Source: an archaeon (GTDB lineage Archaea; Nanobdellota; Nanobdellia; Pacearchaeales; GW2011-AR1). Taken from it: a stretch of 64,000 nt of DNA. Shown here one piece after another: positions 7,835 to 20,621 of the stretch. The stretch is from the NCBI GenBank assembly GCA_043810775.1, contig JBDRNU010000025.1, positions 1-64,000 of the forward strand, given 5' to 3'. The translations under genes were made by a program, and so were the position numbers. The first letter of the stretch is position 1; every line of letters starts with the position of its first letter. The notes under the pieces were generated by a model. It ran no database searches. It worked only from the letters and a program-made list of their open reading frames with translations, and was not told the DNA's origin.

Positions 7835-7980
7835 TTTATCACTTTAAGCTATAGGATTTAGGTTTAAAAAGTTACTCATAAACGGTGATGACTTTTTTCA
7901 ATTTAGTAACTTTTAAAAAGACTTAGTTTATAGCTAAATTGAGGTGCAGCGCCTCAGAAGCTTATTCTGAGAAAATTAAG

Positions 7981-9681
7981 ATGGTAAAAAAACAAATTAG
8001 AACACTAAATGTGGATTTAGATAACCATGGTATTGAGCTAGCTGAAAAGCCAGTTGAAGAGGCTAGTTTAGAAGAAAAGCTAGGAGGTTTTGGAAAGGCA
8101 ATTCAGGATATTGGGAAAAATTTAGCAAGAAATCCAGATTTAAGGCTAGCACATGACCCTAGGAATCTTCTTTGCATTAACACTGGTTTTTTAACAGGCA
8201 CCAATGTAATGACAGCAAAGAGAACTTATGTTTCTGCTTTAAGCCCTTTGAAAACAAGCCTTAAAAGGACAAATGGAATTTATTATTCTACAGCAAGTGG
8301 CATGTTTGGACCTGCATTAAAGGGAGCTGGTTTTGATGCAGTTAATATATCTGGAAGAAATGGAAGAAATCCTCTTTACTTGTTTATTGACAGAAATCAC
8401 GCTTCTTTTGAAGACGCATCTGATTTAATTGGAAAGACAACTGAAGAAAAAATTTATCAATTAGCTGAAAAATACCCTAATTCTGGAATAATGGCAATTG
8501 GGCCTGCTGGTGAGAGTTTAGTGAATTATGCAGGAATTGCTTTTTCAACTTATAATCAAATTAAGAAAGGAAGCAAGCATATGAGATTTGCAGGAAGGGG
8601 TGGAATGGGGGCTGTTATGGGTGGGAAAGGATTGGTAGCAGTAGTTGTTAGTGGCGATGAAAGTAAGATTGATGTTGGTGATGTTAAAGAATTAAATAAA
8701 GAAATAGCAACTGGGCAGAAGACTTTAAAATATAGAAAGGAAGGAACTTTTCAAGGAAATATTGTAAGTATGCAAGAGCTAAATGCTGTTATTGTTGATA
8801 ATTTTTCAAGAGGCTCTGATCCAAGAATAGAGAAGCTTTATAGGAAAAGTTTAGAAGAAGCAGGATATGAAATTAAAAATAAGGCATGCCATGGGTGTGG
8901 AGTAGCTTGCTGGAAGGAAATTAGCAAAGATGGGCAAGTTTTAGGCAAGCTAGATTTTGAGCCTGGAATGCTTCTTGGTCCAAATTTAGGGATATATGAT
9001 ATTAATCAGATAATGCACTTAATTAGCCGTGCTGATTCTCTTGGTTTAGATTCAATTTCTTTAGGAGTTTCACTAGGCTATGAATTAGAAAAGCAAAAAA
9101 GATTTGGGGATTTTGAGCTTGCAAGTAGCTTGACTGAGGAAATTGGAATAGGACATCATCCTTTAATGTGGGGTGTTGCAAAATATTCAAACAGGGCTGA
9201 CAATGCATTTCAAGTCAAGGGAGTTGAACTAGCTGCGTATCCTCCCCATGTAAATCCAGGATATTCTTTTGCAGTTGGAGGCCCTCACACTTCAATAGAT
9301 ACTTATAAATGCTTTATATATCCTGACGCTGCAAATGATGCACCAGAGTGGAGAGATAATACTTTGAGAGGTACAAAAATTCTTCTTTATGATATGAATG
9401 GATTATGTAAATTTTCAAAAGTTAATTTTAAAGACAATGCAGATCTTTATGAAAGAGTTTACGGAGAAAGAGTAAGTGAAGATGATTTTAAAAAAATAGG
9501 CCAAAAAGTTCATTTAATAGCTAGAGGAATTGATTCCAGTTTAGGATTTGGCCATGAAGATGATGTTCTTCCTGGAAATGCACATTTAGATTACCAGATT
9601 AATGGTGTCAAGCATTTTAATACGAGAGAGTTTTTCGAAGATTATAAGGGGGAAGTTTACAGGGCTTATGGTGAGGCTTAA
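7981..9681 (+). CDS. aor: Aldehyde:ferredoxin oxidoreductase family protein
   Basis: SPLK, GPALKGAGFD, AIGPAGE, AGRGGMGAVMG.K, CHGCGVAC, GLDSIS, QVKG.E, GLCKF. Confidence 0.88.
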   Translation: MVKKQIRTLNVDLDNHGIELAEKPVEEASLEEKLGGFGKAIQDIGKNLARNPDLRLAHDPRNLLCINTGFLTGTNVMTAKRTYVSALSPLKTSLKRTNGIYYSTASGMFGPALKGAGFDAVNISGRNGRNPLYLFIDRNHASFEDASDLIGKTTEEKIYQLAEKYPNSGIMAIGPAGESLVNYAGIAFSTYNQIKKGSKHMRFAGRGGMGAVMGGKGLVAVVVSGDESKIDVGDVKELNKEIATGQKTLKYRKEGTFQGNIVSMQELNAVIVDNFSRGSDPRIEKLYRKSLEEAGYEIKNKACHGCGVACWKEISKDGQVLGKLDFEPGMLLGPNLGIYDINQIMHLISRADSLGLDSISLGVSLGYELEKQKRFGDFELASSLTEEIGIGHHPLMWGVAKYSNRADNAFQVKGVELAAYPPHVNPGYSFAVGGPHTSIDTYKCFIYPDAANDAPEWRDNTLRGTKILLYDMNGLCKFSKVNFKDNADLYERVYGERVSEDDFKKIGQKVHLIARGIDSSLGFGHEDDVLPGNAHLDYQINGVKHFNTREFFEDYKGEVYRAYGEA

Positions 9682-10343
9682 ATTTTCAGAATTTCTATAA
9701 TTTCACCTATTTTTTTATTAGATGAGTATAATCTTGGAGGCCTGTGAGAGACATTTTTTTTAATTTGTTTAGTTAGCTTTAAAATTCCCAGGGAGAGTAT
9801 TTTTTTCCTGAAATTTCGCTTGTCAAACTTTTTATTAAAGACAATATCATATGTTTTTTGAAGCTGAGTCAGCGTGAATTTATCAGGAAGAAGCGAAAAT
9901 GCAATGGTAGTGTATTCAAATTTCCATCTTAGTCTTTTAATTGCATACTCAAGAATCTTGTTATGGTCAAATGCTAATTTTGGAATTTTGTAAGTTGAAA
10001 ACCAGTGTGCTTCGGCTGCATCTGAAGAGGCTTTTAGCTTTAACTCAGAGGAATTGACTAGGGCCAGATGAGTCACTGTAATTACTCTTCCTCTTGGGTC
10101 TCTATCTGGCTGGCTGAAAGTATAGAGCTGTTCTAGGTAGACTGTTTCAATTCCTGTTTCTTCTTTTAGCTCTCTTTTAGCAGCTTCTTCAACTGTTTCA
10201 TTTATTTTAAGGAATCCTCCGGGAATTGCCCAGTTCCCCTTATAAGGTTCTATAGCTCTTTTTATCAGTAAAACTTTTAAGTCATTGTCTTTTATTGTGA
10301 AGACAACCAGATCTACAGTTACTTTTGGGTTTTCATAAGCCAT
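9678..10343 (-). CDS. nrtR: NrtR, Nudix-related transcriptional regulator (Nudix + winged HTH)
   Basis: VTVDLVVF, WAIPGGF..ETVEEAAKRELKEETG, LEQLYTF..PDRDPRGRVIT, LAFDH, FTLTQL, DKRNFRKK, HRPPRLY. Confidence 0.92.
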   Translation of the reverse strand: MAYENPKVTVDLVVFTIKDNDLKVLLIKRAIEPYKGNWAIPGGFLKINETVEEAAKRELKEETGIETVYLEQLYTFSQPDRDPRGRVITVTHLALVNSSELKLKASSDAAEAHWFSTYKIPKLAFDHNKILEYAIKRLRWKFEYTTIAFSLLPDKFTLTQLQKTYDIVFNKKFDKRNFRKKILSLGILKLTKQIKKNVSHRPPRLYSSNKKIGEIIEILKI

Positions 10344-10346
10344 TTT

Positions 10347-11261
10347 TTATTGATTTTCAAATGTAACAATATTTATTTTATGCCAGTATTCATATCCTTT
10401 TTTGTATTTTTTCTGCAATCCTGTTCTCTGAAGATAGCTAATCCATTTTTTATTATTTAAGATATTATTTACTTTTAATGGAACATACATTGAGTCAATA
10501 ATTTTCATTTTCATTTTAGGCTTATTTTCTAATATAACATCCCAGCACAAGCTTGAAATATTTGTAACTAATATTCCTTTTTTATTTAAATAATCTTGCC
10601 CATAGTATATGAGGTGATTGAGCAAGCCAATTCCTTCATAAGGATTATTTCCTTTATCATCAATTCTCGGCACATATGGGGGATTGCAGATAATCAAGTC
10701 GAATTTGTGGTTTTTTATTTTCTTAAGGCCGTCACCAGCATAAAAAGCAGCTGTTTTATCTTTAATATTATCCATAGCACATTTTATTGCATATGGGTTG
10801 ATATCATTAATTAAAAGAGATTTTACTTTAGATTTTTTTAAGAGATATTTGCTCAAAAATCCAGAGCCACATCCGATTTCAATACAATTACCAAACTTAT
10901 TTCTTTTTTCAAATATTTTTTTAAGAGCTCTTGCAAATAATAGTGTGTCAATAGAAGGGCACCAGACATTTATATGGGTGTAATCCCATGACACAGAAAC
11001 ACCATCATATTCAATAATTCTCGGTTTGTTTGAATATAAAGCAAATAGGGTATCTCTTAGTGTGGGGTTTAGCCTTGATATTTGATAGTTATCTGTTGTT
11101 AGCAATGGATTTTTAAATGTGTGGACATAGATTTTTTTGCTTGGTGGATAGGTGAGAGCTCTTTTTCCATTAATCCTATCTTTTCCCATAATGCTTGCAA
11201 GTTCTACCCCGTTTGCCCATATTTCCTCTTTTTTTAGGTCATTTGAGACTTTTATTATCAT
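10347..11261 (-). CDS. Class I SAM methyltransferase, HemK/PrmC-like with N-terminal extension
   Basis: EIGCGSG, DINPYA, ICNPPY; VWCPSIDTLL. Confidence 0.8.
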   Translation of the reverse strand: MIIKVSNDLKKEEIWANGVELASIMGKDRINGKRALTYPPSKKIYVHTFKNPLLTTDNYQISRLNPTLRDTLFALYSNKPRIIEYDGVSVSWDYTHINVWCPSIDTLLFARALKKIFEKRNKFGNCIEIGCGSGFLSKYLLKKSKVKSLLINDINPYAIKCAMDNIKDKTAAFYAGDGLKKIKNHKFDLIICNPPYVPRIDDKGNNPYEGIGLLNHLIYYGQDYLNKKGILVTNISSLCWDVILENKPKMKMKIIDSMYVPLKVNNILNNKKWISYLQRTGLQKKYKKGYEYWHKINIVTFENQ

Positions 11262-11277
11262 GTATATTATACACTAT
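11257..11277. promoter_or_regulatory. Putative NrtR operator (GT-N7-AC) at the start of the methyltransferase-nrtR operon
   Basis: atcatGT-atattat-ACactat; right arm ACACTA matches the boxes at 20531-20621; minus-strand TTTATAA box at about 11284-11290. Confidence 0.6.
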
Positions 11278-11332
11278 CCTAGCTTATAAATGTTAAGTAT
11301 ATGTTTAAATAATATTAATTCTTTTTTTTGTA

Positions 11333-12823
11333 ATGGTAAGTATTTTATTTCCTGGAAGACATCACATACTCACTAGATTTCAACATCAATATTTAAGAGA
11401 CTTAATTGATAAAGGTGTAAATGGAAAAAAAGTTGATAGAATAGTTTTTATTGTGACTTCTTCTAATCATCAGAACACAAGAAGAAACCCAATACCTCTT
11501 TATTTGAGGGTAATGATGATTACTAAGCTAGCTAGTAATCTCCCTTGTGAAATTAAAGTTTATGCAATACCTGATATTGAGTATACTAATAAATATGCTA
11601 GATATGTACTAAGCCAAATTTTTTACCAAAGTGGAGAAAAGTATACTCCTGAGAATTCAATACTTGCTTGTTCTTCACCTGCTGTAATTAAATTATTTGA
11701 AAAAGAAGGTTTTTCTAATGTTCCTGTTGAACTAATTAATAAAAAGAGTGAAAAATATATTGATTTAAGACCTTTTGAAGTTATAAAGCTGCTTGTTAAA
11801 TCAGGAAAAAAATGGAGACATGACTCTTCTTGGAAGAAGTATACTTCAGAATCTTCACAAGATATTTATCTGGAGTATAATCTTGGAGACTTGATTATTG
11901 AAGTTTATAATGATTCTTTATTAGGTGAGGATGCTGATATAACTGAGACAAGGGATTATAATACTTATGCTCATGGAATGGACAAATCAATTGAATTTAA
12001 ATTTAATGATATAAAAGTTTTTGTAAGGGAAGGAAAAATCGTTGATGCTGGATGTGCGACAGGTGCTTTAATTAATTATCTTGCAAAGGAATTTAATGAG
12101 TCAGATATTATTGGCATTGAAGCTACTAGGAGATTTTATGAGTACTGCAGGATGCAGGATTATCCAAGCCCGTTTGTGTTTTTTTACAGAAGGAATATTC
12201 TTGACCAGAATTTTAAAGAAGGCACTATAAATACTTTTATTTATTCTTCTATTTTGCATGAAATTTATTCTTACCTTAATAAGGCGGCATTGATAAAACT
12301 GCTAAAAAATACTTATAAACAGTTAACTTTTGGAGGAAGAATAGTTATTAGAGATGTTGTTGGTCCTGAAAATCCCAATAAAATTGTTTATATGGAATTA
12401 AATGAAAAAGATGGGGAGAAGGAAGGAAGCATTGAGAAAATGTCTACTTATTCTAAATTTTTTAGATTTGCCAAAGATTTTACAAGAAAAATAAAGTTCA
12501 AAGAAGTAAAAATAAATGAAAAGAAGTTGATTAAGTTAAGGCTAGTTGACGCTTATGAGTATATAAGCAAGATGTCATATACTGATAATTGGAAAAGTGA
12601 GATGCATGAAGAATTTGGCTTTTGGAGTTTTAATGATTGGAAAAAAGAATTAATGAAAGTTGGATTTAATATAGTTAGGGGCAGTAAAGAATTTAAGAAT
12701 CCCCATATTATTGAAAAAAAGTATAAAGGAAAAGTTAATTTCTACACTTTAAGAAATAATAAATTAATTGAAGAAGATTACCCTTGCACTAATATGATTA
12801 TTGCAGGTGAAAAGAAAGATTAA
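11333..12823 (+). CDS. Fusion of HIGH-superfamily nucleotidyltransferase-like domain and class I SAM methyltransferase
   Basis: N-terminal FPGRHHILT...TSSN...TRRNP...R (cytidylyltransferase/NMNAT-like); C-terminal VDAGCATG, SSILHEIYSY, GGRIVIRD. Confidence 0.72.
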   Translation: MVSILFPGRHHILTRFQHQYLRDLIDKGVNGKKVDRIVFIVTSSNHQNTRRNPIPLYLRVMMITKLASNLPCEIKVYAIPDIEYTNKYARYVLSQIFYQSGEKYTPENSILACSSPAVIKLFEKEGFSNVPVELINKKSEKYIDLRPFEVIKLLVKSGKKWRHDSSWKKYTSESSQDIYLEYNLGDLIIEVYNDSLLGEDADITETRDYNTYAHGMDKSIEFKFNDIKVFVREGKIVDAGCATGALINYLAKEFNESDIIGIEATRRFYEYCRMQDYPSPFVFFYRRNILDQNFKEGTINTFIYSSILHEIYSYLNKAALIKLLKNTYKQLTFGGRIVIRDVVGPENPNKIVYMELNEKDGEKEGSIEKMSTYSKFFRFAKDFTRKIKFKEVKINEKKLIKLRLVDAYEYISKMSYTDNWKSEMHEEFGFWSFNDWKKELMKVGFNIVRGSKEFKNPHIIEKKYKGKVNFYTLRNNKLIEEDYPCTNMIIAGEKKD

Positions 12824-13272
12824 TTTTTTGAATTTATCCATTTTTTAACTTGAGAAGATAGCTCTTCTAAAGAGTATACTATTTGCACTTCCGGGCGAAT
12901 TAGATTGGTTTGTATTTCTACATCTGACTTTCTTAAATATTCCGGGTCAACTCCTATAAAAATAGGCTTATTAAACACTGACACTTTTCCTAGCTCATAG
13001 AGTGTTATTGGGCAGAGGGTATCTTTTGGAAACCAAAATATCACCGCATCTGCAAGCTTGAGATGATTGAATTCCCATGTAATTTGTTCTTTTTCTATGT
13101 CTGGAAAGTTTTCAGCGTATTTTTCCCTTCTGGGGTTTAGTATAACAATATTTTCTTCTTTTAGCAGCTCAATGAATTTTGACTGCCAGTCTGCGCATCC
13201 AGTTATACCTCCTGCTAAAAAAATACTTTTTTCTTTTTCAGTGTAAACTTTGGGGCATTGTATACATTTCAT
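12820..13272 (-). CDS. Nucleoside 2-deoxyribosyltransferase-like protein
   Basis: SIFLAGGITGCADWQ, LNPRR, QITWE..HL..AD..FWFP...CPITLYELG. Confidence 0.85.
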   Translation of the reverse strand: MKCIQCPKVYTEKEKSIFLAGGITGCADWQSKFIELLKEENIVILNPRREKYAENFPDIEKEQITWEFNHLKLADAVIFWFPKDTLCPITLYELGKVSVFNKPIFIGVDPEYLRKSDVEIQTNLIRPEVQIVYSLEELSSQVKKWINSKN

Positions 13273-14054
13273 TTTTTGATATCAATAACATTTAGAGGTT
13301 GATTAGAAATTGAAATTTCAACTATATCTCCTTTGTTGAAATTATAAACTGTATTTGAATCAAGTGCAATGATTCCTCCCGAATACCTATCTGACTTGAA
13401 TATAATACTTTCATTTTCAAGCATCTCTCCTGAAAGAAGTTGTGGCTTGAATACTCTTTTTCCTGAATAAGGCTCTCTGACTAAGAATGCTAGTTTTCTT
13501 TCATCATATGGAAAAGGCTTTCCACCAGCTGATTTAAACCAGGCATTGCTTCCTGAGCCAGTTGCAACAAGAACTCCTGAGCTTTTCTGCCTTTCTTCTT
13601 TTCCACGGTATTTTATCAAATATCTTGCAGTGGCAAATTGCTTTTCAGTGCCAATAAAAACCTCGTTCAGAGCAAGCTCTTTAAGATGAGTGCCATTTAT
13701 TTTTACTAAAGCCCTTTGCCTTTTAATCAGATTATATTTTCCGTTTAGAATTTCACCAAGGAAATTAATTTCATCATCTTTTAAGCTAGCTGACGCGCCT
13801 TCACTATATTCTGGCTCTGCATTTATCCCTATGATTGGAGTTTCTTTAAGAAATCTTGCGGCACGAATAAACCCTCCATCTCCCCCTATTGTTATTACTA
13901 AATCAATTTCCTTGAATAAAGATTCAGTTAGGTCGTGCGACTTCGCAAGTGTGTACTTTCTTGCTCCTAAAATAGCCTTTACTTTTTCAATTACCTCAAG
14001 ACATTTGTCTGATTTTCTTTCGCTATATACCACTAAAATTTTTTGAAATTTCAT
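13269..14054 (-). CDS. nadK: NAD(+) kinase
   Basis: ITIGGDGGF, IGIN, ALNEV, SSGVLVATGSGSNAWFKSAGG. Confidence 0.9.
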   Translation of the reverse strand: MKFQKILVVYSERKSDKCLEVIEKVKAILGARKYTLAKSHDLTESLFKEIDLVITIGGDGGFIRAARFLKETPIIGINAEPEYSEGASASLKDDEINFLGEILNGKYNLIKRQRALVKINGTHLKELALNEVFIGTEKQFATARYLIKYRGKEERQKSSGVLVATGSGSNAWFKSAGGKPFPYDERKLAFLVREPYSGKRVFKPQLLSGEMLENESIIFKSDRYSGGIIALDSNTVYNFNKGDIVEISISNQPLNVIDIKK

Positions 14055-14055
14055 T

Positions 14056-14958
14056 TTAAGATTTGTACCTCTGTGACATTACTGCAAGCACATTTAGTGC
14101 AGGTATTATTGTTTCTTTTCTAAGACAGATTTCATCTCCGAACATTAAATTTCTGTATCCCATTCTTAATAAATTATCCAAGTCAGATATATCCTCGCAT
14201 GATGGTTCTGGATTTAGTGCAAGTGAAGATAGTATTCTTGATGCTACTACTGCGTTTTTGTTTCTATTTAATATTTTCTCTAATGCAGGTATTATATTAT
14301 GGGGCCAGTAAAGCTCCATATATAAATCTCCACGAGCAGCCATTAGCCTTGTGTTGATTTCATTAAGGTTATCAAGCCCTTTTTGCGATTCTATTTTTGA
14401 AATTATTTCTGATTCCTGGCTGTACTTCCTGAATTCTTCAATATCCTGCTTTCCTTCTACAAATGAAAGCATATATCTTTTTATTCCAATTTTAGTGCAT
14501 GCTTCTATATATCTTTTGTCAGTGTCAGTTAAGTATCCTTCAACTTCCAGTGTTGGATGAACTATTGTTACTGATTCTCCAGGGCCTACAACTCTTCTTG
14601 GGCCTTCTTGCATTATTAGTTTGTTGCCTTCAACTTCCAGAACTGTGGCTTTTTCATTTCTGTCAGAAAAATATGCTTTGCAAGGAGTATAAACTCTTAT
14701 GTTATGGCTTAGTTCTATTTCAGTGAATGGAGGAACCCCATAGTTTTTTACTCTTAATTGCCTGCACTTTAAGTCAATCCAAAGGTCTTTTTCATATTCA
14801 CTTGCTTTTTCATCCAGATATTTGAGAGTATCTTCTAAGCTGTCTTTAATAGGCATTACTGTGTTTAATCTTATTCCGCCAACTATGCTGTGCTTTAGAA
14901 CTTCGTCTATATAGGGTGCATATGGAGGCATTGTAACTATTGCTATTTTTTGTGCCAT
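14056..14958 (-). CDS. Pyruvate-kinase-like protein (A barrel + B domain, no C domain)
   Basis: GIRLN, LWIDLK, MLSFV, SKIES, AARGDLYME, PSCEDISD, MFGDE. Confidence 0.78.
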   Translation of the reverse strand: MAQKIAIVTMPPYAPYIDEVLKHSIVGGIRLNTVMPIKDSLEDTLKYLDEKASEYEKDLWIDLKCRQLRVKNYGVPPFTEIELSHNIRVYTPCKAYFSDRNEKATVLEVEGNKLIMQEGPRRVVGPGESVTIVHPTLEVEGYLTDTDKRYIEACTKIGIKRYMLSFVEGKQDIEEFRKYSQESEIISKIESQKGLDNLNEINTRLMAARGDLYMELYWPHNIIPALEKILNRNKNAVVASRILSSLALNPEPSCEDISDLDNLLRMGYRNLMFGDEICLRKETIIPALNVLAVMSQRYKS

Positions 14959-14985
14959 TTTTTATGATTTGATTTTAATTTCTTA

Positions 14986-15018
14986 CAAAATTTAAAAAAC
15001 AAAAAAAATAAAAAAAAA
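14986..15018 (-). terminator. T-rich tract downstream of vWA gene (possible archaeal terminator)
   Basis: Plus strand aaaatttaaaaaacaaaaaaaataaaaaaaa gives oligo-U on the minus-strand transcript. Confidence 0.4.
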
Positions 15019-15021
15019 TTT

Positions 15022-16032
15022 TTAGTCGAGCAATGACTTTGTTTTCTTTGAACCAGTTTTGGACATTACAGATAATGCTGGCGGATTGTCATCAATATAT
15101 CTTAGTGATTTATGTACTGATTCCTTTATCATTGGATCGTCGTGTCTTGCGTCAAGATTTATGCTAAAATCAGTGTATTCTCCCCACAACTTAGCAATCA
15201 AGCCCATACCTACATCTACTGCTCTTTGTGCTCCTGGAATAATTATTCCCCCTTCACCTTCAACTTCGTATGGGAGTTCAATTATTCTTTCTCTTCCAAG
15301 CACTTTGCCCCAGTTTTCACCAACTTCTTTAGTAGTTGAGCTTTCATTGCCATGACCGTATGGTTTGTGCATAAAGTAGATATTGAATTTTTGCATTAAG
15401 TTTCTCCAAACTTCTGCTGACTCAAGTTCAGACTGTAAATCATCGCCAATATAGTGCCTTACTTGTTTTCTGTCAACTTTGTCATAAAAAGTTTCGTCCC
15501 CGTAAATTAGTAAGAACGGAGATTTAGCCTTAGGAGTTTTGCAATGTTCCTGAATGAAGTAACCAAAAAGCTCGTAACTTTCTGTTATGTGGCCTCCACC
15601 CCCACCTTCACAACCTAATGCCTTTAGCTTAGCTTCAAGCTCTGCTTCTTTTCCAAAGTCATTTACCTGAAGTGGATAGCTGTCACATGTTGCATCACCG
15701 ATTGCTGCAAAACAGATTTCTAAATCAGGACGATATTTTGAAAGTGTCTGGTATAACAAGGGCAGCCTGTCAAAAATCTCTCCTGGCCAGGTTGCCATTG
15801 AACCTGTTACATCCACTGCAATTACTATTGGATTCTCGCTTTCACTTGTGATTATCTTGCCTTTTGGATTTACTAGAGCCATATCAGGTGTTGATCTTGC
15901 CATGTAACTCCTTGGGCCTGCGTCTACTGCTATCTTGTCGTATCTTGCTCTTGCTGAACCAAAGTCATATGCTTTTGAACCTTTCCAATCATCTGTATCT
16001 CCTCCCCATGCATACATTTTTTTACAATGCAC
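15022..16032 (-). CDS. von Willebrand factor A (vWA) domain protein
   Basis: MIDAS-like AVDVTGSM, AIGDATCD..PLQV, EGGGGG..ESYEL, IYGDE. Confidence 0.82.
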   Translation of the reverse strand: MHCKKMYAWGGDTDDWKGSKAYDFGSARARYDKIAVDAGPRSYMARSTPDMALVNPKGKIITSESENPIVIAVDVTGSMATWPGEIFDRLPLLYQTLSKYRPDLEICFAAIGDATCDSYPLQVNDFGKEAELEAKLKALGCEGGGGGHITESYELFGYFIQEHCKTPKAKSPFLLIYGDETFYDKVDRKQVRHYIGDDLQSELESAEVWRNLMQKFNIYFMHKPYGHGNESSTTKEVGENWGKVLGRERIIELPYEVEGEGGIIIPGAQRAVDVGMGLIAKLWGEYTDFSINLDARHDDPMIKESVHKSLRYIDDNPPALSVMSKTGSKKTKSLLD

Positions 16033-16816
16033 CTCCTTTCACTTTTTTGATGTCTCGGTAGTGTCTTCTTCCGAAAACTTTTTCGCGAATATCAGATAAT
16101 ACTATAATTGGATTTTCTTTTTCCCAGTTTGGTCTTTCAAGAGGATCATATCTAAGAAGGTGATTGCAGAATTCGACTATTTCTTCGGGAGTGTCGCCTC
16201 TAAAGGATTTTTTTGCAATATCTCCCCCTAAAGCCCTCAGCATCACAATTCCTGCACCATATAAGTCTGTTTCTGGAATTGGAGGATTTCCTGCTATTAG
16301 TTCTGGAGCAGCATATCTTGGAGTGTATCCTGGAGAACGTGTTGTACTTTTGGGCCTGTAGCTTGCGAGACCAAAATCAATAAGCTTTATATCATGCTTT
16401 TGAGGTTCTATGAAAACATTTTGTGGTTTTACGTCACTGTGAATTACACCATAGCAATGAGTGTAATATAGTGCTCCAAGCAGTCTTTCTGTTATCCAGC
16501 ACGCATCTTCTGGATGCACCGGACCATTTTTCTCTGTGATGTCTTCCAAAGTCTTGCCATCTATGTAACTCATTACAAGAACAGCATTTGTTCTGTCTAG
16601 CTGAATAAAATCTTTTATACTTGGTATTGAGTGGTGTTCATCAAGTTTCCAGAGTAGTTTACCTTCGTGCTTTAGTAGTTCAACATCAAGCGAACTACTT
16701 ATTTTGTTTTGCTTTAAGCATGCTTTTGTTCCAAGTATCAAATGCTCTGCCTGAAATACTCTTCCAAATCCACCTTCCCCTATTTGCTTCAGTACATTAT
16801 AATTTCCAATTTTCAT
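16022..16816 (-). CDS. Hanks-type Ser/Thr protein kinase (stand-alone, soluble)
   Basis: IGEGGFGRV, CLK, IHSDVKPQN, IDFG, TPRYAAPE, TDLYGAG, R in subdomain XI. Confidence 0.93.
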   Translation of the reverse strand: MKIGNYNVLKQIGEGGFGRVFQAEHLILGTKACLKQNKISSSLDVELLKHEGKLLWKLDEHHSIPSIKDFIQLDRTNAVLVMSYIDGKTLEDITEKNGPVHPEDACWITERLLGALYYTHCYGVIHSDVKPQNVFIEPQKHDIKLIDFGLASYRPKSTTRSPGYTPRYAAPELIAGNPPIPETDLYGAGIVMLRALGGDIAKKSFRGDTPEEIVEFCNHLLRYDPLERPNWEKENPIIVLSDIREKVFGRRHYRDIKKVKGGAL

Positions 16817-17427
16817 CTTGTTTCTCCTGCGTAATTTTTTTCTTCAATTGCGTTTTCCTTTAGGTTTATTTTGTTTTGGATTAGGTCTGCTATTGTCTTT
16901 AATCCAAATTCTTTGCGAAATCTTTCAATTATTTGGTTTTTTTCTAAGTAGTCAGCAACTTCTTCTGAAACTTGTGTTTTCCAGCTGTCCCCTAAAGCCA
17001 TTTCAAGCCTTACCTGAGTTGCTTTTAATTTTACATGCTTTCTTTTTGGAATTATTAGTGAAGGATGCAGGATTTTGTAGGAATCTTGCAGTAATTCTGC
17101 AACATATGGATTTGCAGTTACAAAATAATCTAAGTTTCCAAATTTTTCTTTTACATATTCCCTCCATTTCCCCCCATCAGCATACTCTGGAATATGCGCA
17201 AAATCTGGAATATGGATAACTTTATAGTTCGCGTAATTTTTTAGAGTGAGTTTTATCATTTCTTCTGATTCTTCTGCTGTGAAAGGATTTCTTGAATTGT
17301 ATTTGTTGCAACTACCTATTCCAATTATTAGCTGTTCTGAATTTTCACAGACTGACTCAAGCATTATTGCAGCTCCCTTATGGAGTGGCTTGAATCTTCC
17401 TATTAATCCCACTTTTCCAAATTTCAT
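16813..17427 (-). CDS. nadM: NMN/NaMN adenylyltransferase-like (NadM)
   Basis: IGRFKPLHKGA, IGIGS.N..NSRNPFT..E, ATQVR, W...V; NAD operon context. Confidence 0.8.
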   Translation of the reverse strand: MKFGKVGLIGRFKPLHKGAAIMLESVCENSEQLIIGIGSCNKYNSRNPFTAEESEEMIKLTLKNYANYKVIHIPDFAHIPEYADGGKWREYVKEKFGNLDYFVTANPYVAELLQDSYKILHPSLIIPKRKHVKLKATQVRLEMALGDSWKTQVSEEVADYLEKNQIIERFRKEFGLKTIADLIQNKINLKENAIEEKNYAGETR

Positions 17428-17921
17428 TTTGATTTTTCAGATTGCCTCCTTTCAAGGTAAAATTTGAGAATTTTTCTGTGATGGGGGAATGCCCAGATGT
17501 TTTTTTCAAGAAGATTTTCAAGTTTGCTCTCTTCACAGAGAAAAGCTCTTTTTGCATCTTCATTTGGATTAGGCTTTAGGTTTCCATATCCCTTTGCAGT
17601 ATAGGTCACACTTGCAATAAACTCTCTTGGATCCTGTTCTAATTCTGAAAGTACGCATAGCGGGAATTCTGGAGCGTCTAATTCAATGGTTAGTCCAGTT
17701 TCTTCTTTAGCTTCTTTTAGAGCATTTTCATAAAGGGGAATCCTTTCAGCTATTCCTCCTGGAAGTGCAATTCCAAAAGGGGGATTTTTTCTCTCAATTA
17801 AAACAATTCCCTGCTTTTCCCCATTAGTATATCTTATTACTATATCTGTGGCTAAATACGGGCCACGATATTCTCTTCTTAGGTATTCTTTGAATTTTTC
17901 ATAAGCCATTTTTTTCACCAT
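17424..17921 (-). CDS. Nudix hydrolase (ADP-ribose pyrophosphatase-like)
   Basis: LIERKNPPFGIALPGG...KEAKEETGL, QDPR, AFPHH. Confidence 0.85.
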   Translation of the reverse strand: MVKKMAYEKFKEYLRREYRGPYLATDIVIRYTNGEKQGIVLIERKNPPFGIALPGGIAERIPLYENALKEAKEETGLTIELDAPEFPLCVLSELEQDPREFIASVTYTAKGYGNLKPNPNEDAKRAFLCEESKLENLLEKNIWAFPHHRKILKFYLERRQSEKSK

Positions 17922-18807
17922 TATTGTAATTGAGAGTTACTGGTGCAGTTGGAGGATGAATAATTTCTGATTTTGCTTCAGCAACTTCTCTTCTGAACAT
18001 GATATCTTTCATTATTTCTTGAGCATTCTGAAATTTTTTGTATTTGAATTCAAATTCATATTGATGTATTTGCTTTTCAGCAAGTAGTTTTACTTGAGGG
18101 TGGACAGCCAGTTCTAGATGAGAGAAACCTTGTTTTAGCCCTTCACCAACTAGTTCAGTTAAATCATAATCATATCCCAAGTCTTTGAAATCTGTTTGCC
18201 CTTGATAAAGTCCTGCTGTTGGCGTTCTATTTGCCAAATCTGGAAATCCCAGATAGCAGGCAAGTTCCCTGACAAGTCTTTTTGGAAGGTTTCCTATAGG
18301 ACTTAGATGAACTGCCCCATCTCCAAATAAAGTATAATAACCAATTTCAAAATCTTCATCCCTGTTTCCTGTTCCAAGCAAAAGCTTGTTTTCAGTTGCT
18401 GCTTTTTGGTGAAGTATTACTGCCCGAATTTCTGACATTAGGTTCCCCTTATGATATTTAGAATTCATAGACAGTGGGTTAGTATTTGCAAATGCCCTTA
18501 CTACAGGCTCTATATTCACTATCTCATATCTAATTCCGAGCCTTTCTGCAACTTTTACTCCGTCTTCTTTGTCTTTTGGAAAGTTTGCATTTGAAGGAAG
18601 TATGTATCCTACTAGCTCTAATTGTTTTTCTTTGCAGCTGTCAAAAGCTTTTTTTGCCAGTGCTGCTGTGGTTGTTGAGTCTACCCCTCCACTTAGCCCT
18701 ATTATCCCTCCAACCCTGCCAGATTCAATTATATTCTGGATAATAAAATCTCCAATTTCCCTGCATGCAGTTTCTGGATTTATTTTTGCCAGTTTTATTT
18801 TTTTCAT
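17899..18807 (-). CDS. nadE: NH3-dependent NAD+ synthetase
   Basis: GLSGGVDS, GNL..EIR, GTGNRDE..IGYYTLFGDG, PIGNLPK, PTAGL..GQTD..DLG. Confidence 0.93.
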   Translation of the reverse strand: MKKIKLAKINPETACREIGDFIIQNIIESGRVGGIIGLSGGVDSTTTAALAKKAFDSCKEKQLELVGYILPSNANFPKDKEDGVKVAERLGIRYEIVNIEPVVRAFANTNPLSMNSKYHKGNLMSEIRAVILHQKAATENKLLLGTGNRDEDFEIGYYTLFGDGAVHLSPIGNLPKRLVRELACYLGFPDLANRTPTAGLYQGQTDFKDLGYDYDLTELVGEGLKQGFSHLELAVHPQVKLLAEKQIHQYEFEFKYKKFQNAQEIMKDIMFRREVAEAKSEIIHPPTAPVTLNYNNGEKNGL

Positions 18808-19373
18808 TTTAACATCCCCACGAGTATATTTTTAGTTTTTACAAAAATAGCTCCAGCTTGTGCCATATCTTCTAGAGATTGATTGGTTGATTCTGGAAAT
18901 ACTCCTTTTATTGCGTCTTCAACTACATAACATTTTATTTTTCTTGCAAGCATTCCTAAAACTGCTGCTTTTACACAATAGTCTGTTGCAACTCCGTAGA
19001 CTAGTGCTTTTGTTACTTGTTTTTCTTTTAAGAATCTTGCAAATTCTGGATTTGTAAAAATGTCATAGCTTTGTTTTTCAAAGTAGATTCCTTGTTCTGT
19101 TCTTGTTTCTGTTATTTTTTCCTGCCCATAAGTTCCAGCCATACAGTGGTCAGGAAATGGGCCTTTCCATCTTGCAAGTTCAAGCTCTTTTTCCTTGTAT
19201 TCTTCTGTTCCAAAATGCCTATCAACGCTTCCAAGTATAGGAATTTTATTTTTAATTGCATAATCAGTTAGTAGCTTTAGATTTGGCTTTATTAGTTCTG
19301 CGTCAGGAACATACAGAGCTCCATCTTTATTCATGAAGTCGTTTTGTGTGTCTACATCATAAAAGATTTTCAT
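18804..19373 (-). CDS. pncA: Nicotinamidase (isochorismatase family)
   Basis: VDTQNDF..GALYV, D.H, FPDHC..GT.G, K, GVATDYCV. Confidence 0.92.
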   Translation of the reverse strand: MKIFYDVDTQNDFMNKDGALYVPDAELIKPNLKLLTDYAIKNKIPILGSVDRHFGTEEYKEKELELARWKGPFPDHCMAGTYGQEKITETRTEQGIYFEKQSYDIFTNPEFARFLKEKQVTKALVYGVATDYCVKAAVLGMLARKIKCYVVEDAIKGVFPESTNQSLEDMAQAGAIFVKTKNILVGMLK

Positions 19374-20524
19374 TTTTCGCTTTCTCCTTTAAATTTAGCT
19401 TCTCTTTCATCTCTCCCTTTTTTTGAGTGAGGAACCCAGATTCTATTTTTCTCGCTAAAGTAGGCTACTATATCTGAAGTTGCCATAATTACTCCAGGAA
19501 CAAGACTTCCTGTTCCAATTGAGTCAAATAAGTTTATGCCAGAATATTCTTTGTAGATAGCGTCAGCTTTAACAAAATCAGCTGTTTTTTCTGCATTAAA
19601 TCCTGAGGAAACTGTTAGCTTGACATTTTCATATCCTTCTCTATTGAGAGCTTTTCGCAATGCCCAGACTGGTGCTATTTTTACTCCCTTACCATACACT
19701 TTTTTTGTTTCAATGCATTTTGGAACCTCAATTTCAGTATAGCCTTGAGCATAGTTTTCTCCACAAGTGTCAATTCTTACTCCTGCTAGCTTACTTTTCA
19801 AAGTTTTAGCTACTGCTATTGAGTCATCTATTTCTCTGTTTAGAGTATCAATAAGAACTATTCTTGGCACTTCTTGTGAAATATACTTGTCAAATGCTTT
19901 TGCTGTTTCTACTGTTGGATTATTAGTTTCATATTTTTCTGGAAATTCCTTCATATCAGCTGCAAAACTTAGTATCAGTGCGTGAGGGATTGTTCCTATG
20001 CCTTTAGAATTCCAAGCTTTAGCTCCAATGTCGGTTGAACAGCCTGAAAAACCTTCTTCATAACAAATTCTTGCTATTTGCTCGTCTAGTGAAGGATGAA
20101 AATGGCGAGCTCCAAAATATAAGAGGGGCTTGTCCTGAGCTGCTTGCACTATAGCTCTTGCATTTTCTCTTACTTGCTCTAGGTTTATTTTTCCAGTAAG
20201 ACCTGCAGAAATAAGCCCTAGATAGACTGTTTCTAGTTCTACAAGGTCTTGAACTCGGCCTTCTATTTTAATTAAAGGCTCGCCAGATTCATATTCTATA
20301 CCATCTTTAAGAGAATAAATTTTTACTTTTTCCTGAGCATTTTTTCTAATAAATTCAACTGCTTCACCTAAACCTTTTGTAATTCCTTTTGCTCTTGCAA
20401 ATATTTGATACCTAACTAAAGGATTTACTCCTTCTTGTTCAAGTATATTTCTACTTCTGAGAAAGTACTTATCAGTATATTCCTCGTGTTTACTTATCCA
20501 GGGTTTTTTTGATTCTTGTTTCAT
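19370..20524 (-). CDS. pncB: Nicotinate phosphoribosyltransferase
   Basis: YTDKYF, LVELET, FGARH, GTIPHA, LIDT, GVRIDT.GE, VSSGF. Confidence 0.88.
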   Translation of the reverse strand: MKQESKKPWISKHEEYTDKYFLRSRNILEQEGVNPLVRYQIFARAKGITKGLGEAVEFIRKNAQEKVKIYSLKDGIEYESGEPLIKIEGRVQDLVELETVYLGLISAGLTGKINLEQVRENARAIVQAAQDKPLLYFGARHFHPSLDEQIARICYEEGFSGCSTDIGAKAWNSKGIGTIPHALILSFAADMKEFPEKYETNNPTVETAKAFDKYISQEVPRIVLIDTLNREIDDSIAVAKTLKSKLAGVRIDTCGENYAQGYTEIEVPKCIETKKVYGKGVKIAPVWALRKALNREGYENVKLTVSSGFNAEKTADFVKADAIYKEYSGINLFDSIGTGSLVPGVIMATSDIVAYFSEKNRIWVPHSKKGRDEREAKFKGESEK

Positions 20525-20530
20525 TTTATC

Positions 20531-20621
20531 TTAGTGTGTTTATTACACTTACTATAGTGTATACTTTACACTATATAAAGATTATTGTTCTAGAGAATAC
20601 ATATTGTATAACTTACACTAA
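20531..20621. promoter_or_regulatory. Three putative NrtR operators (GT-N7-AC palindromes) in the pncB promoter
   Basis: AGTGT-gtttatt-ACACT (20533-49); TATAGTGT-atacttt-ACACTATA (20553-75, overlapping minus-strand TTTATATA box); ttGT-ataactt-ACACTA (20604-20). Confidence 0.75.

Follow-up and report, generated by a model that had tools for sequence, protein, structure and literature searches.

A predicted NrtR regulon for NAD salvage in an archaeon carries a widespread, uncharacterised NadM-vWA-mini-pyruvate kinase module

We have analysed an NAD salvage locus of a DPANN-type archaeon, on a 64,000-nt stretch of DNA (contig JBDRNU010000025.1, positions 1 to 64,000; hereafter 'the window') in which genes for nicotinamidase (pncA), a nicotinate phosphoribosyltransferase-like protein (pncB-like), NAD synthase (nadE), a Nudix hydrolase, an NMN/NaMN adenylyltransferase (nadM) and NAD kinase (nadK) stand together with those for a Hanks-type protein kinase, a von Willebrand factor A (vWA)-fold protein and a short pyruvate kinase (PK)-like enzyme (mini-PK), close to a gene for the regulator NrtR. 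What emerges is a known type of regulon in a new domain of life, and one that carries a widespread, conserved and uncharacterised module: at least 69 of the 80 loci that we examined, across two domains of life, have the genes of two uncharacterised proteins, the vWA protein and the mini-PK, lying between nadM on one side and nadE or nadK on the other. NAD salvage is deemed closed textbook matter, yet this linkage suggests that NAD homeostasis has a further component, be it regulatory, energetic or catalytic, that has been missed. The host is an archaeon by its small- and large-subunit rRNA genes, and the nearest relatives of its proteins are encoded in metagenome-assembled genomes of Nanoarchaeota or Woesearchaeota; with a genome of 995 kb at 80% completeness, it is indeed the reduced archaeon that a first-pass annotation of this DNA had supposed. 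(The host genome is labelled G000, and the window is its contig C25; other G- and L-numbers are genomes and loci of relatives.) Gene identities, which come from Pfam and NCBIfam scans of the window's open reading frames (ORFs), place all thirteen genes where the first-pass annotation had put them (Table 2); like the operator sites, linkage, folds and conserved catalytic positions described below, they were established in silico.

The NrtR protein has both its N-terminal Nudix domain and its C-terminal winged-helix DNA-binding domain, and the Nudix box appears intact by eye in the translation. Its operator is TAGTGTA-N5-TACACTA, read as a perfect palindrome upstream of the pncB-like gene, where there are three boxes in tandem: 20602-20620 (one mismatch), 20555-20573 (perfect) and 20532-20550 (two mismatches). 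A scan of the window at up to three mismatches found seven boxes against 2.4 expected, a number that none of 100 shuffles attained, and four of the seven lie in two promoter regions: three on the pncB-like side, and one between a HemK-like methyltransferase gene (hemK-like) and a gene for a nucleotidyltransferase-methyltransferase fusion. Sites with at most one mismatch number three in the entire genome, and two of these are upstream of the pncB-like gene; a one-mismatch box at C3:39699 of the host genome apparently lies inside coding sequence, and we took it as chance. The core of the host box, GT-N7-AC, agrees with the conserved core published for bacterial NrtR operators (PMC2330246, in its description of the operator). 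The perfect box overlaps the TATA-like element TTTATATA, about 50 nt upstream of the pncB-like start; the hemK-like box overlaps that gene's start codon, downstream of a TATA-like element at 11284-11291. Boxes so placed at both promoters would suit a repressor acting in an archaeon, and they extend NrtR operator logic to archaeal promoters.

The boxes are kept in relatives. In loci from the host's own order they stand upstream of pncB or in the interval that separates nrtR from the fusion gene, and in 10 of 11 loci of other families there is one upstream of the first NAD gene or of nrtR. Across 39 archaeal loci of the wider scan described below, we counted 59 boxes at up to two mismatches (in 20 shuffles the mean was 4.1 and the highest count 9), with one or more in 29 loci, mostly just upstream of pncB or nrtR; 41 bacterial loci had six. 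Two loci, L057 and L058, have a box 43-73 nt before the start of nadM, the first gene of a NadM-kinase-vWA-PK-like string. Full-length nrtR orthologues, 61-74% identical, were found in 8 of 60 relatives. Seven own-order nrtR loci were examined, and four have NAD genes, for example in the order pncB-pncA-nadE-Nudix-nadK-(NDT)-fusion<>nrtR, where NDT is a nucleoside 2-deoxyribosyltransferase-like gene; the kinase, vWA and PK-like genes occur in none of the seven. NrtR control had been proposed in the first-pass annotation from gene content, and these operator sites, in both promoters and conserved among relatives, support it.

As that annotation had also described, consecutive genes overlap from the pncB-like to the vWA gene, in order by 4, 4, 23, 4, 4 and 11 nt; the last of these overlaps depends on the start chosen, an alternative ATG five codons further into the vWA gene turning it into a 4-nt gap. 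Downstream, 63 nt separate the vWA gene from the PK-like gene and 1 nt separates the latter from nadK, which overlaps the NDT-like gene by 4 nt. The 63-nt T-rich spacer could be an internal terminator with a restart point. The in silico case is firm for a predicted regulon of PncA/PncB-type salvage together with NadM, NadE and NadK, including the NadM, kinase and vWA genes; the mini-PK would belong to it too, provided that the T-rich gap does not end the transcript.

The second line of evidence is recurrence of the accessory genes beside NAD genes. When the vWA protein was searched in 300 other genomes of the phylum, it was found in 14 of them, and in none of 13 members of the host's own family. 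Eleven of the DPANN loci thus obtained are linked to NAD genes; they represent nine families, and all have the order NadM-(kinase)-vWA-PK-like-NadK (L041 is without the kinase, and in L046 the contig end cuts the block inside NadM). NadE and Nudix precede the block in 10 of these 11 loci, and a full nrtR is nearby in nine. A wide scan, with one genome per species, yielded 302 loci with a relative of the vWA protein; among the best 80, which we analysed (39 archaeal and 41 bacterial by their record titles; Table 1), NadM is encoded directly upstream of the vWA gene in 77, and a mini-PK gene follows the vWA gene in 69.

Table 1. Occurrence of locus genes among the best 80 of 302 loci with a vWA relative. 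Bacterial zeros (Nudix and the rows below it) were obtained by tblastn with archaeal proteins at E 1e-5, a search that diverged bacterial versions can escape, as does the Nudix gene of an Anaerolineales chromosome described below.
Gene	Archaeal loci	Bacterial loci
NadM	37/39	40/41
PK-like	37/39	32/41
NadE	33/39	21/41
Kinase	36/39	6/41
Nudix (operon type)	32/39	0/41
NadK	26/39	0/41
Full-length NrtR	21/39	0/41
ADP-ribosylglycohydrolase	11/39	0/41
NMNAT-like/methyltransferase fusion	6/39	0/41
NDT-like	5/39	0/41
HemK-like	3/39	0/41

The bacterial carriers belong to Planctomycetota, Myxococcota (including Chondromyces apiculatus DSM 436, L117), Chloroflexota, Acidobacteriota and Clostridia, and their loci without a PK-like or NadE match mostly stop at contig ends. 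In archaea the kinase gene is inserted between those for NadM and the vWA protein; in bacteria it is never there, and in three Planctomycetota loci it is divergent, just upstream of nadM. One Anaerolineales chromosome has a divergent Nudix gene and then nadM, vWA, PK-like and a glutamine-type nadE; in the archaeal loci with an operon-type Nudix gene, this lies between NadE and NadM. FastTree trees of NadM, the vWA protein and the PK-like protein each part archaea from bacteria (support 0.994, 0.867 and 0.979, respectively). Judged from gene order and trees, the conserved core is NadM-vWA-mini-PK, usually with NadE and Nudix, the kinase being an archaeal and phage addition, and the NadM-(kinase)-vWA-mini-PK block appears to have been inherited as a unit in archaea and bacteria alike. 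In five bacterial genomes with the cluster, a canonical NadD is encoded elsewhere in all five, and a second strong NadE in three; on these grounds, we regard the bacterial cluster as an additional NAD route.

Among the six accessory genes that the first-pass annotation had joined to NAD salvage, it is three, the kinase, vWA and PK-like genes, that our neighbourhood search ties to NadM, NadE and nrtR in many lineages. The fusion gene is linked to nrtR in a subset only (six of the 39 archaeal loci of Table 1, and three of the seven own-order loci), and the linkage of the NDT-like and HemK-like genes is weaker too. Genes that recur as extra members of the block in relatives encode ADP-ribosylglycohydrolase, phosphoribosyl pyrophosphate (PRPP) synthetase (Prs), nucleoside hydrolase, a GNAT protein and a protein of about 290 aa; the first of these fits a theme of ADP-ribose and NAD turnover. 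The ~290-aa gene, which is absent from the window, lies between the vWA and PK-like genes (L043, L044, L045, L047, L048) and occurs in 7 of the 39 archaeal loci; its product has no Pfam, PHROG or PADLOC match.

The host locus itself looks chimeric. In a comparison of window 12820-20524 with L017, L019, L022, L042 and L057, the proteins from NadE to the PK-like protein are 55-80% identical to those of distant lineages, the host NadE being only 30-38% identical to NadE of own-order relatives; NadK, the NDT-like protein, the fusion, NrtR and the pncB-like protein have own-order relatives as their nearest. These identities suggest that the block from NadE to PK may have been gained as one unit.

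Another informative group of loci carries the kinase-vWA-PK trio away from NAD genes. Three DPANN loci have a paralogous trio with neither NAD genes nor NrtR boxes; there are two or three copies of it per genome in G254, G343 and G118. An uncultured 485-kb phage (LR745208.1; L054, 10890-13853) also encodes the complete trio, 34-35% identical to the window proteins and with no NAD genes within 12 kb. Because of these stand-alone occurrences in three DPANN loci and a phage, we conclude that the trio works as its own unit. For both the vWA and the PK proteins, the stand-alone and phage copies fall outside the NAD-linked clade. Phages have partial versions as well: in about 200 records of Bxz1-like mycobacteriophages, a kinase gene adjoins a vWA homologue near an adenylosuccinate-synthetase-like gene (in Mycobacterium phage LinStu, L055, gp257-gp260, the kinase is gp257 and the vWA homologue gp258), and in Vibrio phage Va1 (L056, Va1_038-039) the vWA homologue adjoins adenylosuccinate synthase. 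These contexts suggest a wider tie of the vWA family to nucleotide metabolism.

The assignment of the 336-aa protein to the vWA fold comes from its AlphaFold2 (AF2) model (pLDDT 85.1). The Foldseek matches listed for this model are all vWA or beta-I domains (integrin beta-I, SpaC, NorD, ITIH1 and Ku80), with probabilities of 0.99-1.0 and E values of about 2e-5 to 1.6e-4, albeit with query-normalised template-modelling (TM) scores of only ~0.3-0.4; a structure match in the ESM Atlas to a VWA cluster has TM scores of 0.58/0.73. On the model, then, this is a vWA protein, of a family outside the curated ones: the host protein has no Pfam or NCBIfam match, nor does any of 31 members of its family have one even with E allowed to reach 1, a search of PDB sequences with the family profile returned nothing (best E 0.14), and the sole match is phrog_2971, whose function is unassigned. 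No PADLOC model matches the vWA or the PK-like protein; the kinase matches generic PD-T4-6/kinase models.

An alignment of 87 vWA sequences, the phage and stand-alone copies included, has twelve positions that are invariant throughout: D74, T76, G77, S78, G112, D113, D117, E142, G143, G146, E151 and D179. D74, T76 and S78 form a variant metal ion-dependent adhesion site (MIDAS) motif, DVTGS (DxTGS), accompanied by D179; the position of the usual MIDAS threonine is variable in this family, and the invariant E151 adjoins it. Conservation confined to the kinase-bearing archaeal clade is seen at four serines (26, 171, 309 and 321), of which the C-terminal tail has two; the PK-like protein has one such clade-specific serine position, and NadM none. 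In the kinase translation we read GEGGFG, HSDVKPQN, DFG and APE, the first of which we take to be the Gly-rich loop; the motif names are our own assignments.

As to the mini-PK, the profile of its family finds pyruvate kinases in the PDB at E 1e-16, and its model (pLDDT 91.5) matches pyruvate kinases in Foldseek at E 7e-21. Because the TM score is ~0.8 over the query but ~0.5 over the target, we conclude that it consists of an A and a B domain, the C domain being absent. The protein, which ends at 300 aa in a family of 295-335 aa throughout, is without the C-terminal allosteric/oligomerisation domain. Twelve positions are invariant in 69 of 69 sequences (R30, N32, D62, K64, R66, R69, K188, E190, G210, D211, S240 and R241, with R209 in 67), and these twelve presumably correspond to the residues for phosphoenolpyruvate (PEP), K+, Mg2+ and the proton relay. 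The first 120 aa alone have no PDB match, and for this reason the mapping of the N-terminal RLN and DxK motifs rests on the family-profile match to 8iw2_A (profile 17-279) and on the fold.

As to NadM, its nearest solved relative is the MJ0541 NMNAT (E 9e-18), and it is the best NMNAT-like match in the host genome. Its HxGH motif reads HKGA, and in an alignment of 76 sequences the second His is present in 3 of 37 archaeal members (the rest have HxG[G/A/S]) and in 32 of 38 bacterial ones. Loss of this His coincides with the presence of a kinase gene. We presume the Nudix enzyme of the operon to be an ADP-ribose pyrophosphatase partner of NadM. The host pncB-like protein is 52% identical to the product of the first gene in the NAD operon of an own-order relative (L022).

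Bearing in mind this combination of genes and sites, we hypothesize that NrtR controls, at this locus, a regulon that salvages and recycles NAD(P) and includes a PEP-to-ATP module regulated by the vWA protein and the kinase; we rate the chance that this is so as about even. NrtR would sit on the boxes, which overlap the region from TATA element to start both at the pncB-like operon and at the hemK-like/nrtR unit that encodes NrtR itself. If it behaves like its bacterial counterparts, ADP-ribose from NAD breakdown would then release it, ADP-ribose induction being the standard model for NrtR regulons (as set out for bacteria in PMC2330246). PncA, the PncB-like protein, NadM, NadE and NadK would rebuild NAD(P) from nicotinamide, and the Nudix enzyme would convert ADP-ribose to AMP and ribose 5-phosphate. 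The mini-PK would draw ATP from PEP and ADP for the salvage steps, which consume several ATP per NAD(P): PEP, which lies downstream of the NAD-dependent glyceraldehyde-3-phosphate dehydrogenase (GAPDH), would be the one glycolytic energy donor still usable at low NAD+. The vWA protein might stand in for the missing C domain, or might be a scaffold that brings the mini-PK to NadM or NadE. Where a Hanks kinase accompanies the unit, in archaea and phages, it would act as a gate through phosphorylation of the vWA protein, perhaps on the C-terminal serines (S309 and S321 being the prime candidates), as ArnC does with ArnB. In this scheme the response to ADP-ribose, the PEP/ATP chemistry, the contacts of the vWA protein with the PK or the kinase, and vWA phosphorylation are what we infer, and for the module mechanism itself (ATP supply by the mini-PK, regulation by the vWA protein, gating by the kinase) we claim a tentative standing, possible yet short of even. 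A bolder proposal, which we consider doubtful but worth stating, is that the vWA protein and the C-domain-less PK (with the kinase in archaea and phages) might be an unrecognised unit of NAD metabolism, either an ADP-ribose-triggered, PEP-powered emergency ATP supply for times of NAD+ collapse or a new enzyme pair for NAD/ADP-ribose reconstitution, common to DPANN archaea, Planctomycetota, Myxococcota, Chloroflexota, Acidobacteriota and Clostridia and with one version in huge phages.

Several observations weigh against the hypothesis in one part or another. The idea of ATP supply derives from conserved PK residues and pathway logic, and the real substrate could differ; the acidic and Gly invariants of the vWA family exceed what a MIDAS needs, which hints at an enzyme rather than a scaffold. 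Phosphorylation is not essential to the core job, because bacteria run the module without an inserted kinase, and the archaea-specific serines could be mere clade divergence. Two assignments are below curated cut-offs, those of NadM by NCBIfam and of NrtR (NF050029, 177.6 bits against an equivalog cut-off of 400), and archaeal NadM has mostly lost the second His of HxGH. Finally, the 63-nt gap has no box, and the PK-like, nadK and NDT-like genes may be transcribed separately; and the host mini-PK, in a genome with no other PK match, may also serve ordinary glycolysis.

The last of these points can be extended into a full alternative, that the PK-like gene just supplies the organism with its pyruvate kinase for glycolysis, its vWA and kinase neighbours being unrelated. 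The host genome does have enolase and GAPDH and, at 80% completeness, no other PK family match, and 8 of the 14 trio-bearing genomes are without a canonical PK. The remaining six have both enzymes (the background of canonical PK in the sample is ~82 of 300), and it is for this reason that the mini-PK is not a simple substitute for the canonical enzyme; moreover, some genomes carry the trio in two or three copies, ~204 of 300 sampled phylum genomes (206 of 301 with the host) have no PK family match at all, and the gene order with vWA is maintained throughout most of the loci in two domains (69 of 80). We therefore give this alternative only a slim chance. An equally slim one attaches to the idea that kinase, vWA and PK make up a separate mobile cassette, for signalling or conflict, which is merely carried along in NAD operons; the linkage would then come from transfer of whole operons and not from a shared function. 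Such a cassette would account for the stand-alone trios in DPANN archaea and the huge phage, for the kinase-vWA pairs of mycobacteriophages, for the chimeric look of the host locus, and for the failure to find the module in any other member of the host's family (0 of 13, and 0 of 7 own-order nrtR loci); it fits poorly with NAD-linked vWA and PK proteins that form a clade of their own apart from the stand-alone and phage trios, with adjacency to NadM in 77 of 80 loci and congruent trees over two domains, with a bacterial pair set inside a tight NadM-vWA-PK-NadE string that has no kinase, and with the NrtR boxes that immediately precede nadM and the rest of the module string in L057 and L058.

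Two further alternatives accept the tie to NAD and differ as to what it is for. The operon might be a dedicated countermeasure that restores NAD+ once NADase toxins or defence effectors of a host or competitor have struck, its accessory genes sensing the attack or modifying the products. NrtR boxes would place it under an ADP-ribose-type signal, ADP-ribosylglycohydrolase genes join some archaeal loci, the bacterial cluster is an extra NAD route beside the housekeeping NadD, the trio is present in a huge phage, and phages are described as carrying NAD reconstitution pathways (10.1101/2024.02.11.579819 and PMC13464706). We nevertheless think it unlikely: the operon holds the host's only good NMNAT-like gene and may be its sole housekeeping route (de novo genes were not searched), we identified no NADase, TIR, SIR2 or defence gene beside the locus and no SIR2 in the genome, neither the vWA nor the PK-like protein matches a PADLOC model, and in bacteria, by the regulon survey in PMC2330246, NrtR commonly governs plain salvage genes. 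ADP-ribose induction alone is no mark against housekeeping, because it is standard for any NrtR regulon. Also improbable, in our estimation, is that the mini-PK and vWA protein catalyse a new step of NAD/ADP-ribose recycling, for example a PEP-driven phosphorylation, with a ribose phosphate or an intermediate derived from ADP-ribose as substrate, toward PRPP or toward a NARP1-like activated ADP-ribose. PncB needs PRPP, and the first-pass annotation had seen no PRPP synthetase in the locus; this holds, and no Prs N-terminal domain was found anywhere in the 80%-complete host genome, nor Prs in the trio-bearing G233 (97% complete). The invariant acidic and Gly-rich constellation of the vWA family beyond the MIDAS (87 of 87), the constant position of the module between Nudix/NadM genes and NadE or NadK, and the phage vWA homologues beside kinases and adenylosuccinate-synthetase-like genes would all suit such an activity. 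Against it, Prs is present in four of five other trio-bearing genomes and inside the block in 2 of 39 archaeal loci, stand-alone trios without NAD genes point to a function independent of NAD intermediates, and every PK position that we mapped to binding of PEP, metal or nucleotide is kept, which favours ordinary PK chemistry. Our preferred reading remains an NrtR regulon with a PEP-to-ATP module.

The features of the locus are collected in Table 2. The genes from pncB-like to NDT-like are on the minus strand, the fusion gene is convergent with them, and the hemK-like-nrtR unit is divergent from the fusion gene.

Table 2. Features of the locus, with window coordinates and the basis of each assignment (strand '.', not directional).
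Feature	Position	Strand	Basis or remark
Promoter/operator of the NAD operon	20532..20620	-	three NrtR boxes; TATA-like TTTATATA at 20571-20578
pncB-like, archaeal-type nicotinate phosphoribosyltransferase-like, 384 aa	19370..20524	-	only QRPTase_N in Pfam; NF006415 188 bits (cut-off 243)
pncA, nicotinamidase (isochorismatase family), 189 aa	18804..19373	-	Pfam/NCBIfam
nadE, NH3-type NAD synthase, 302 aa	17899..18807	-	PF02540 E 1e-49
Nudix hydrolase, 165 aa	17424..17921	-	NUDIX E 1.8e-6
nadM-like NMN/NaMN adenylyltransferase, archaeal type, 204 aa	16813..17427	-	NF002243 97 bits (cut-off 127)
Hanks-type Ser/Thr protein kinase, kinase domain alone, 264 aa	16022..16816	-	Pkinase PF00069 E 7.8e-40
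vWA-fold protein (predicted), unnamed family, 336 aa	15022..16032	-	AF2 model and Foldseek; phrog_2971; no Pfam/NCBIfam match
T-rich spacer, 63 nt, vWA gene to PK-like gene	14959..15021	-	no NrtR box inside
Mini-PK, A (TIM barrel) and B domains, 300 aa	14056..14958	-	PF00224 E 1e-15
nadK, NAD kinase, 261 aa	13269..14054	-	Pfam/NCBIfam
NDT-like, Nuc_deoxyri_tr2, 150 aa	12820..13272	-	PF15891 E 7e-19
Fusion of NMNAT-like nucleotidyltransferase and class I SAM methyltransferase, 496 aa	11333..12823	+	Pfam/NCBIfam
NrtR box, two mismatches, in 71-nt putative divergent promoter	11258..11276	.	box scan
HemK/MTS-like methyltransferase, 304 aa, first gene of hemK-like/nrtR unit	10347..11261	-	Pfam/NCBIfam
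nrtR, Nudix and NrtR winged-helix, 221 aa	9678..10343	-	PF00293 E 2.7e-22; PF21906 (NrtR_WHD) E 1.6e-23

The fusion protein belongs to a family of ~500 aa with members in both DPANN archaea and CPR/Patescibacteria, whose only annotation is 'methyltransferase domain-containing'; in a search that scored 970 proteins, the full-length members listed are 53-77% identical. Its gene is divergent from nrtR in L019, L020, L022 and L042, and several relatives have an NrtR box between the two. Two neighbours were considered as members of the regulon and judged unsupported: the HemK-like methyltransferase, linked in only three of the archaeal loci, and aldehyde:ferredoxin oxidoreductase (AFOR), seen in one of the 39 archaeal loci and in the host window. 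The AFOR gene of the window (7939-9681, plus strand) abuts nrtR; in the distant relative L045 (= L087), the NAD operon begins with AFOR, and NrtR-type boxes stand before it, which could be chance. Elsewhere in the window, a single ORF of 2524 aa (48672-56246, plus strand), where the GC skew is very high (0.4), probably encodes a giant surface protein. ARAGORN reported tRNA-like genes with irregular anticodon loops ('???') at C5:1067-1150 and C26:46544-46633 of the host genome; these may be intron-containing or split archaeal tRNAs.

How does the module compare with systems already described? Our literature searches found no publication on a NadM-vWA-PK cluster or module, and for a vWA, kinase and PK-like combination in archaea they brought up only papers of the Arn type. 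Its PK component resembles canonical pyruvate kinase (PDB 5ws8, 1pky) in having an A-domain barrel with a B-domain cap and in the invariance of the RLN, DxK..R, KIE, ARGDL and SR positions. Unlike the canonical enzyme, it is only 300 aa long, has no C-terminal allosteric/tetramerisation domain and is always encoded beside a vWA gene. The TerY-P triad comprises a vWA protein, a PP2C phosphatase and a Ser/Thr kinase. We saw no FHA or PP2C phosphatase partner by Pfam among the window genes or the recurrent extra genes of annotated relatives' loci (the ~290-aa gene being without a Pfam match). In the Arn system of Sulfolobus (ArnA/ArnB/ArnC), as PMC6509490 and PMC12852372 describe it, the vWA protein ArnB is a kinase substrate, and the encoding of a cytoplasmic vWA protein beside a Hanks-type kinase is common to that system and ours. 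The present module is unlike both Arn and TerY-P in that its partner is a PK-like enzyme, its context is NAD metabolism and its vWA family lies outside the Pfam vWA models. The pairing of an archaeal/NadM-type NMNAT with a Nudix enzyme recalls the bifunctional NadM-Nudix proteins (PDB 2qjt, 2qjo) and archaeal NMNAT (MJ0541, PDB 1f9a). The host differs from the bifunctional proteins in having separate genes, in the order Nudix then NadM, and its archaeal NadM relatives differ from both in having HxG[G/A/S] for HxGH and, in the host, an NCBIfam score under the cut-off.

Comparison with the phage pathways NARP1, NARP2 and NARP3, as outlined in 10.1101/2024.02.11.579819 and PMC13464706, reveals a compact set that likewise rebuilds NAD+ from breakdown products. 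Only the NMNAT and Nudix functions are shared with NARP2: the host route passes through PncA, a PncB-like protein and NadE rather than Nampt, Adps/Namat or PnuC/NadR, and the host set is chromosomal, NrtR-regulated and furnished with extra vWA, PK and kinase genes. Neither the Adps plus Namat of NARP1 nor the Nampt plus NMNAT/Nudix of NARP2 was found, with no Prs and a phosphoribosyltransferase that is NAPRTase-like. If it is true that the module buffers NAD collapse, this bears on the survival of ultra-small symbionts, and of phages, under NAD-depleting immunity; a cultured carrier (C. apiculatus DSM 436) and small soluble proteins offer a cheap experimental entry.

The closest parallel for the locus as a whole is with bacterial NrtR regulons. 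We found no description of an archaeal one among the titles and opening lines of abstracts that a literature search listed, nor in the parts consulted of the founding NrtR paper (PMC2330246), and that paper's regulons, as tabulated, are bacterial only; the host is archaeal, with boxes on TATA-type promoters. Found in the host and not in that regulon table are nadK, the kinase, vWA, mini-PK and NDT-like genes and the methyltransferase fusion (the paper's unnamed nrtX and nrtY were not compared). The regulons that Rodionov et al. 2008 list include nrtR-pncA-pncB-nadD-nadE in Clostridium acetobutylicum and nrtR-nadD<>pncA-pncB-nadE in Pseudomonas (PMC2330246, regulon descriptions), and the points of likeness in these descriptions are several: a Nudix plus winged-helix regulator is encoded beside the genes that it controls (pncA, pncB, nadE and that of an adenylyltransferase), acts through a palindromic operator built on a GT-N7-AC core and is autoregulated from a divergent promoter, and the ADP-ribosylglycohydrolase gene (draG) is an occasional neighbour.

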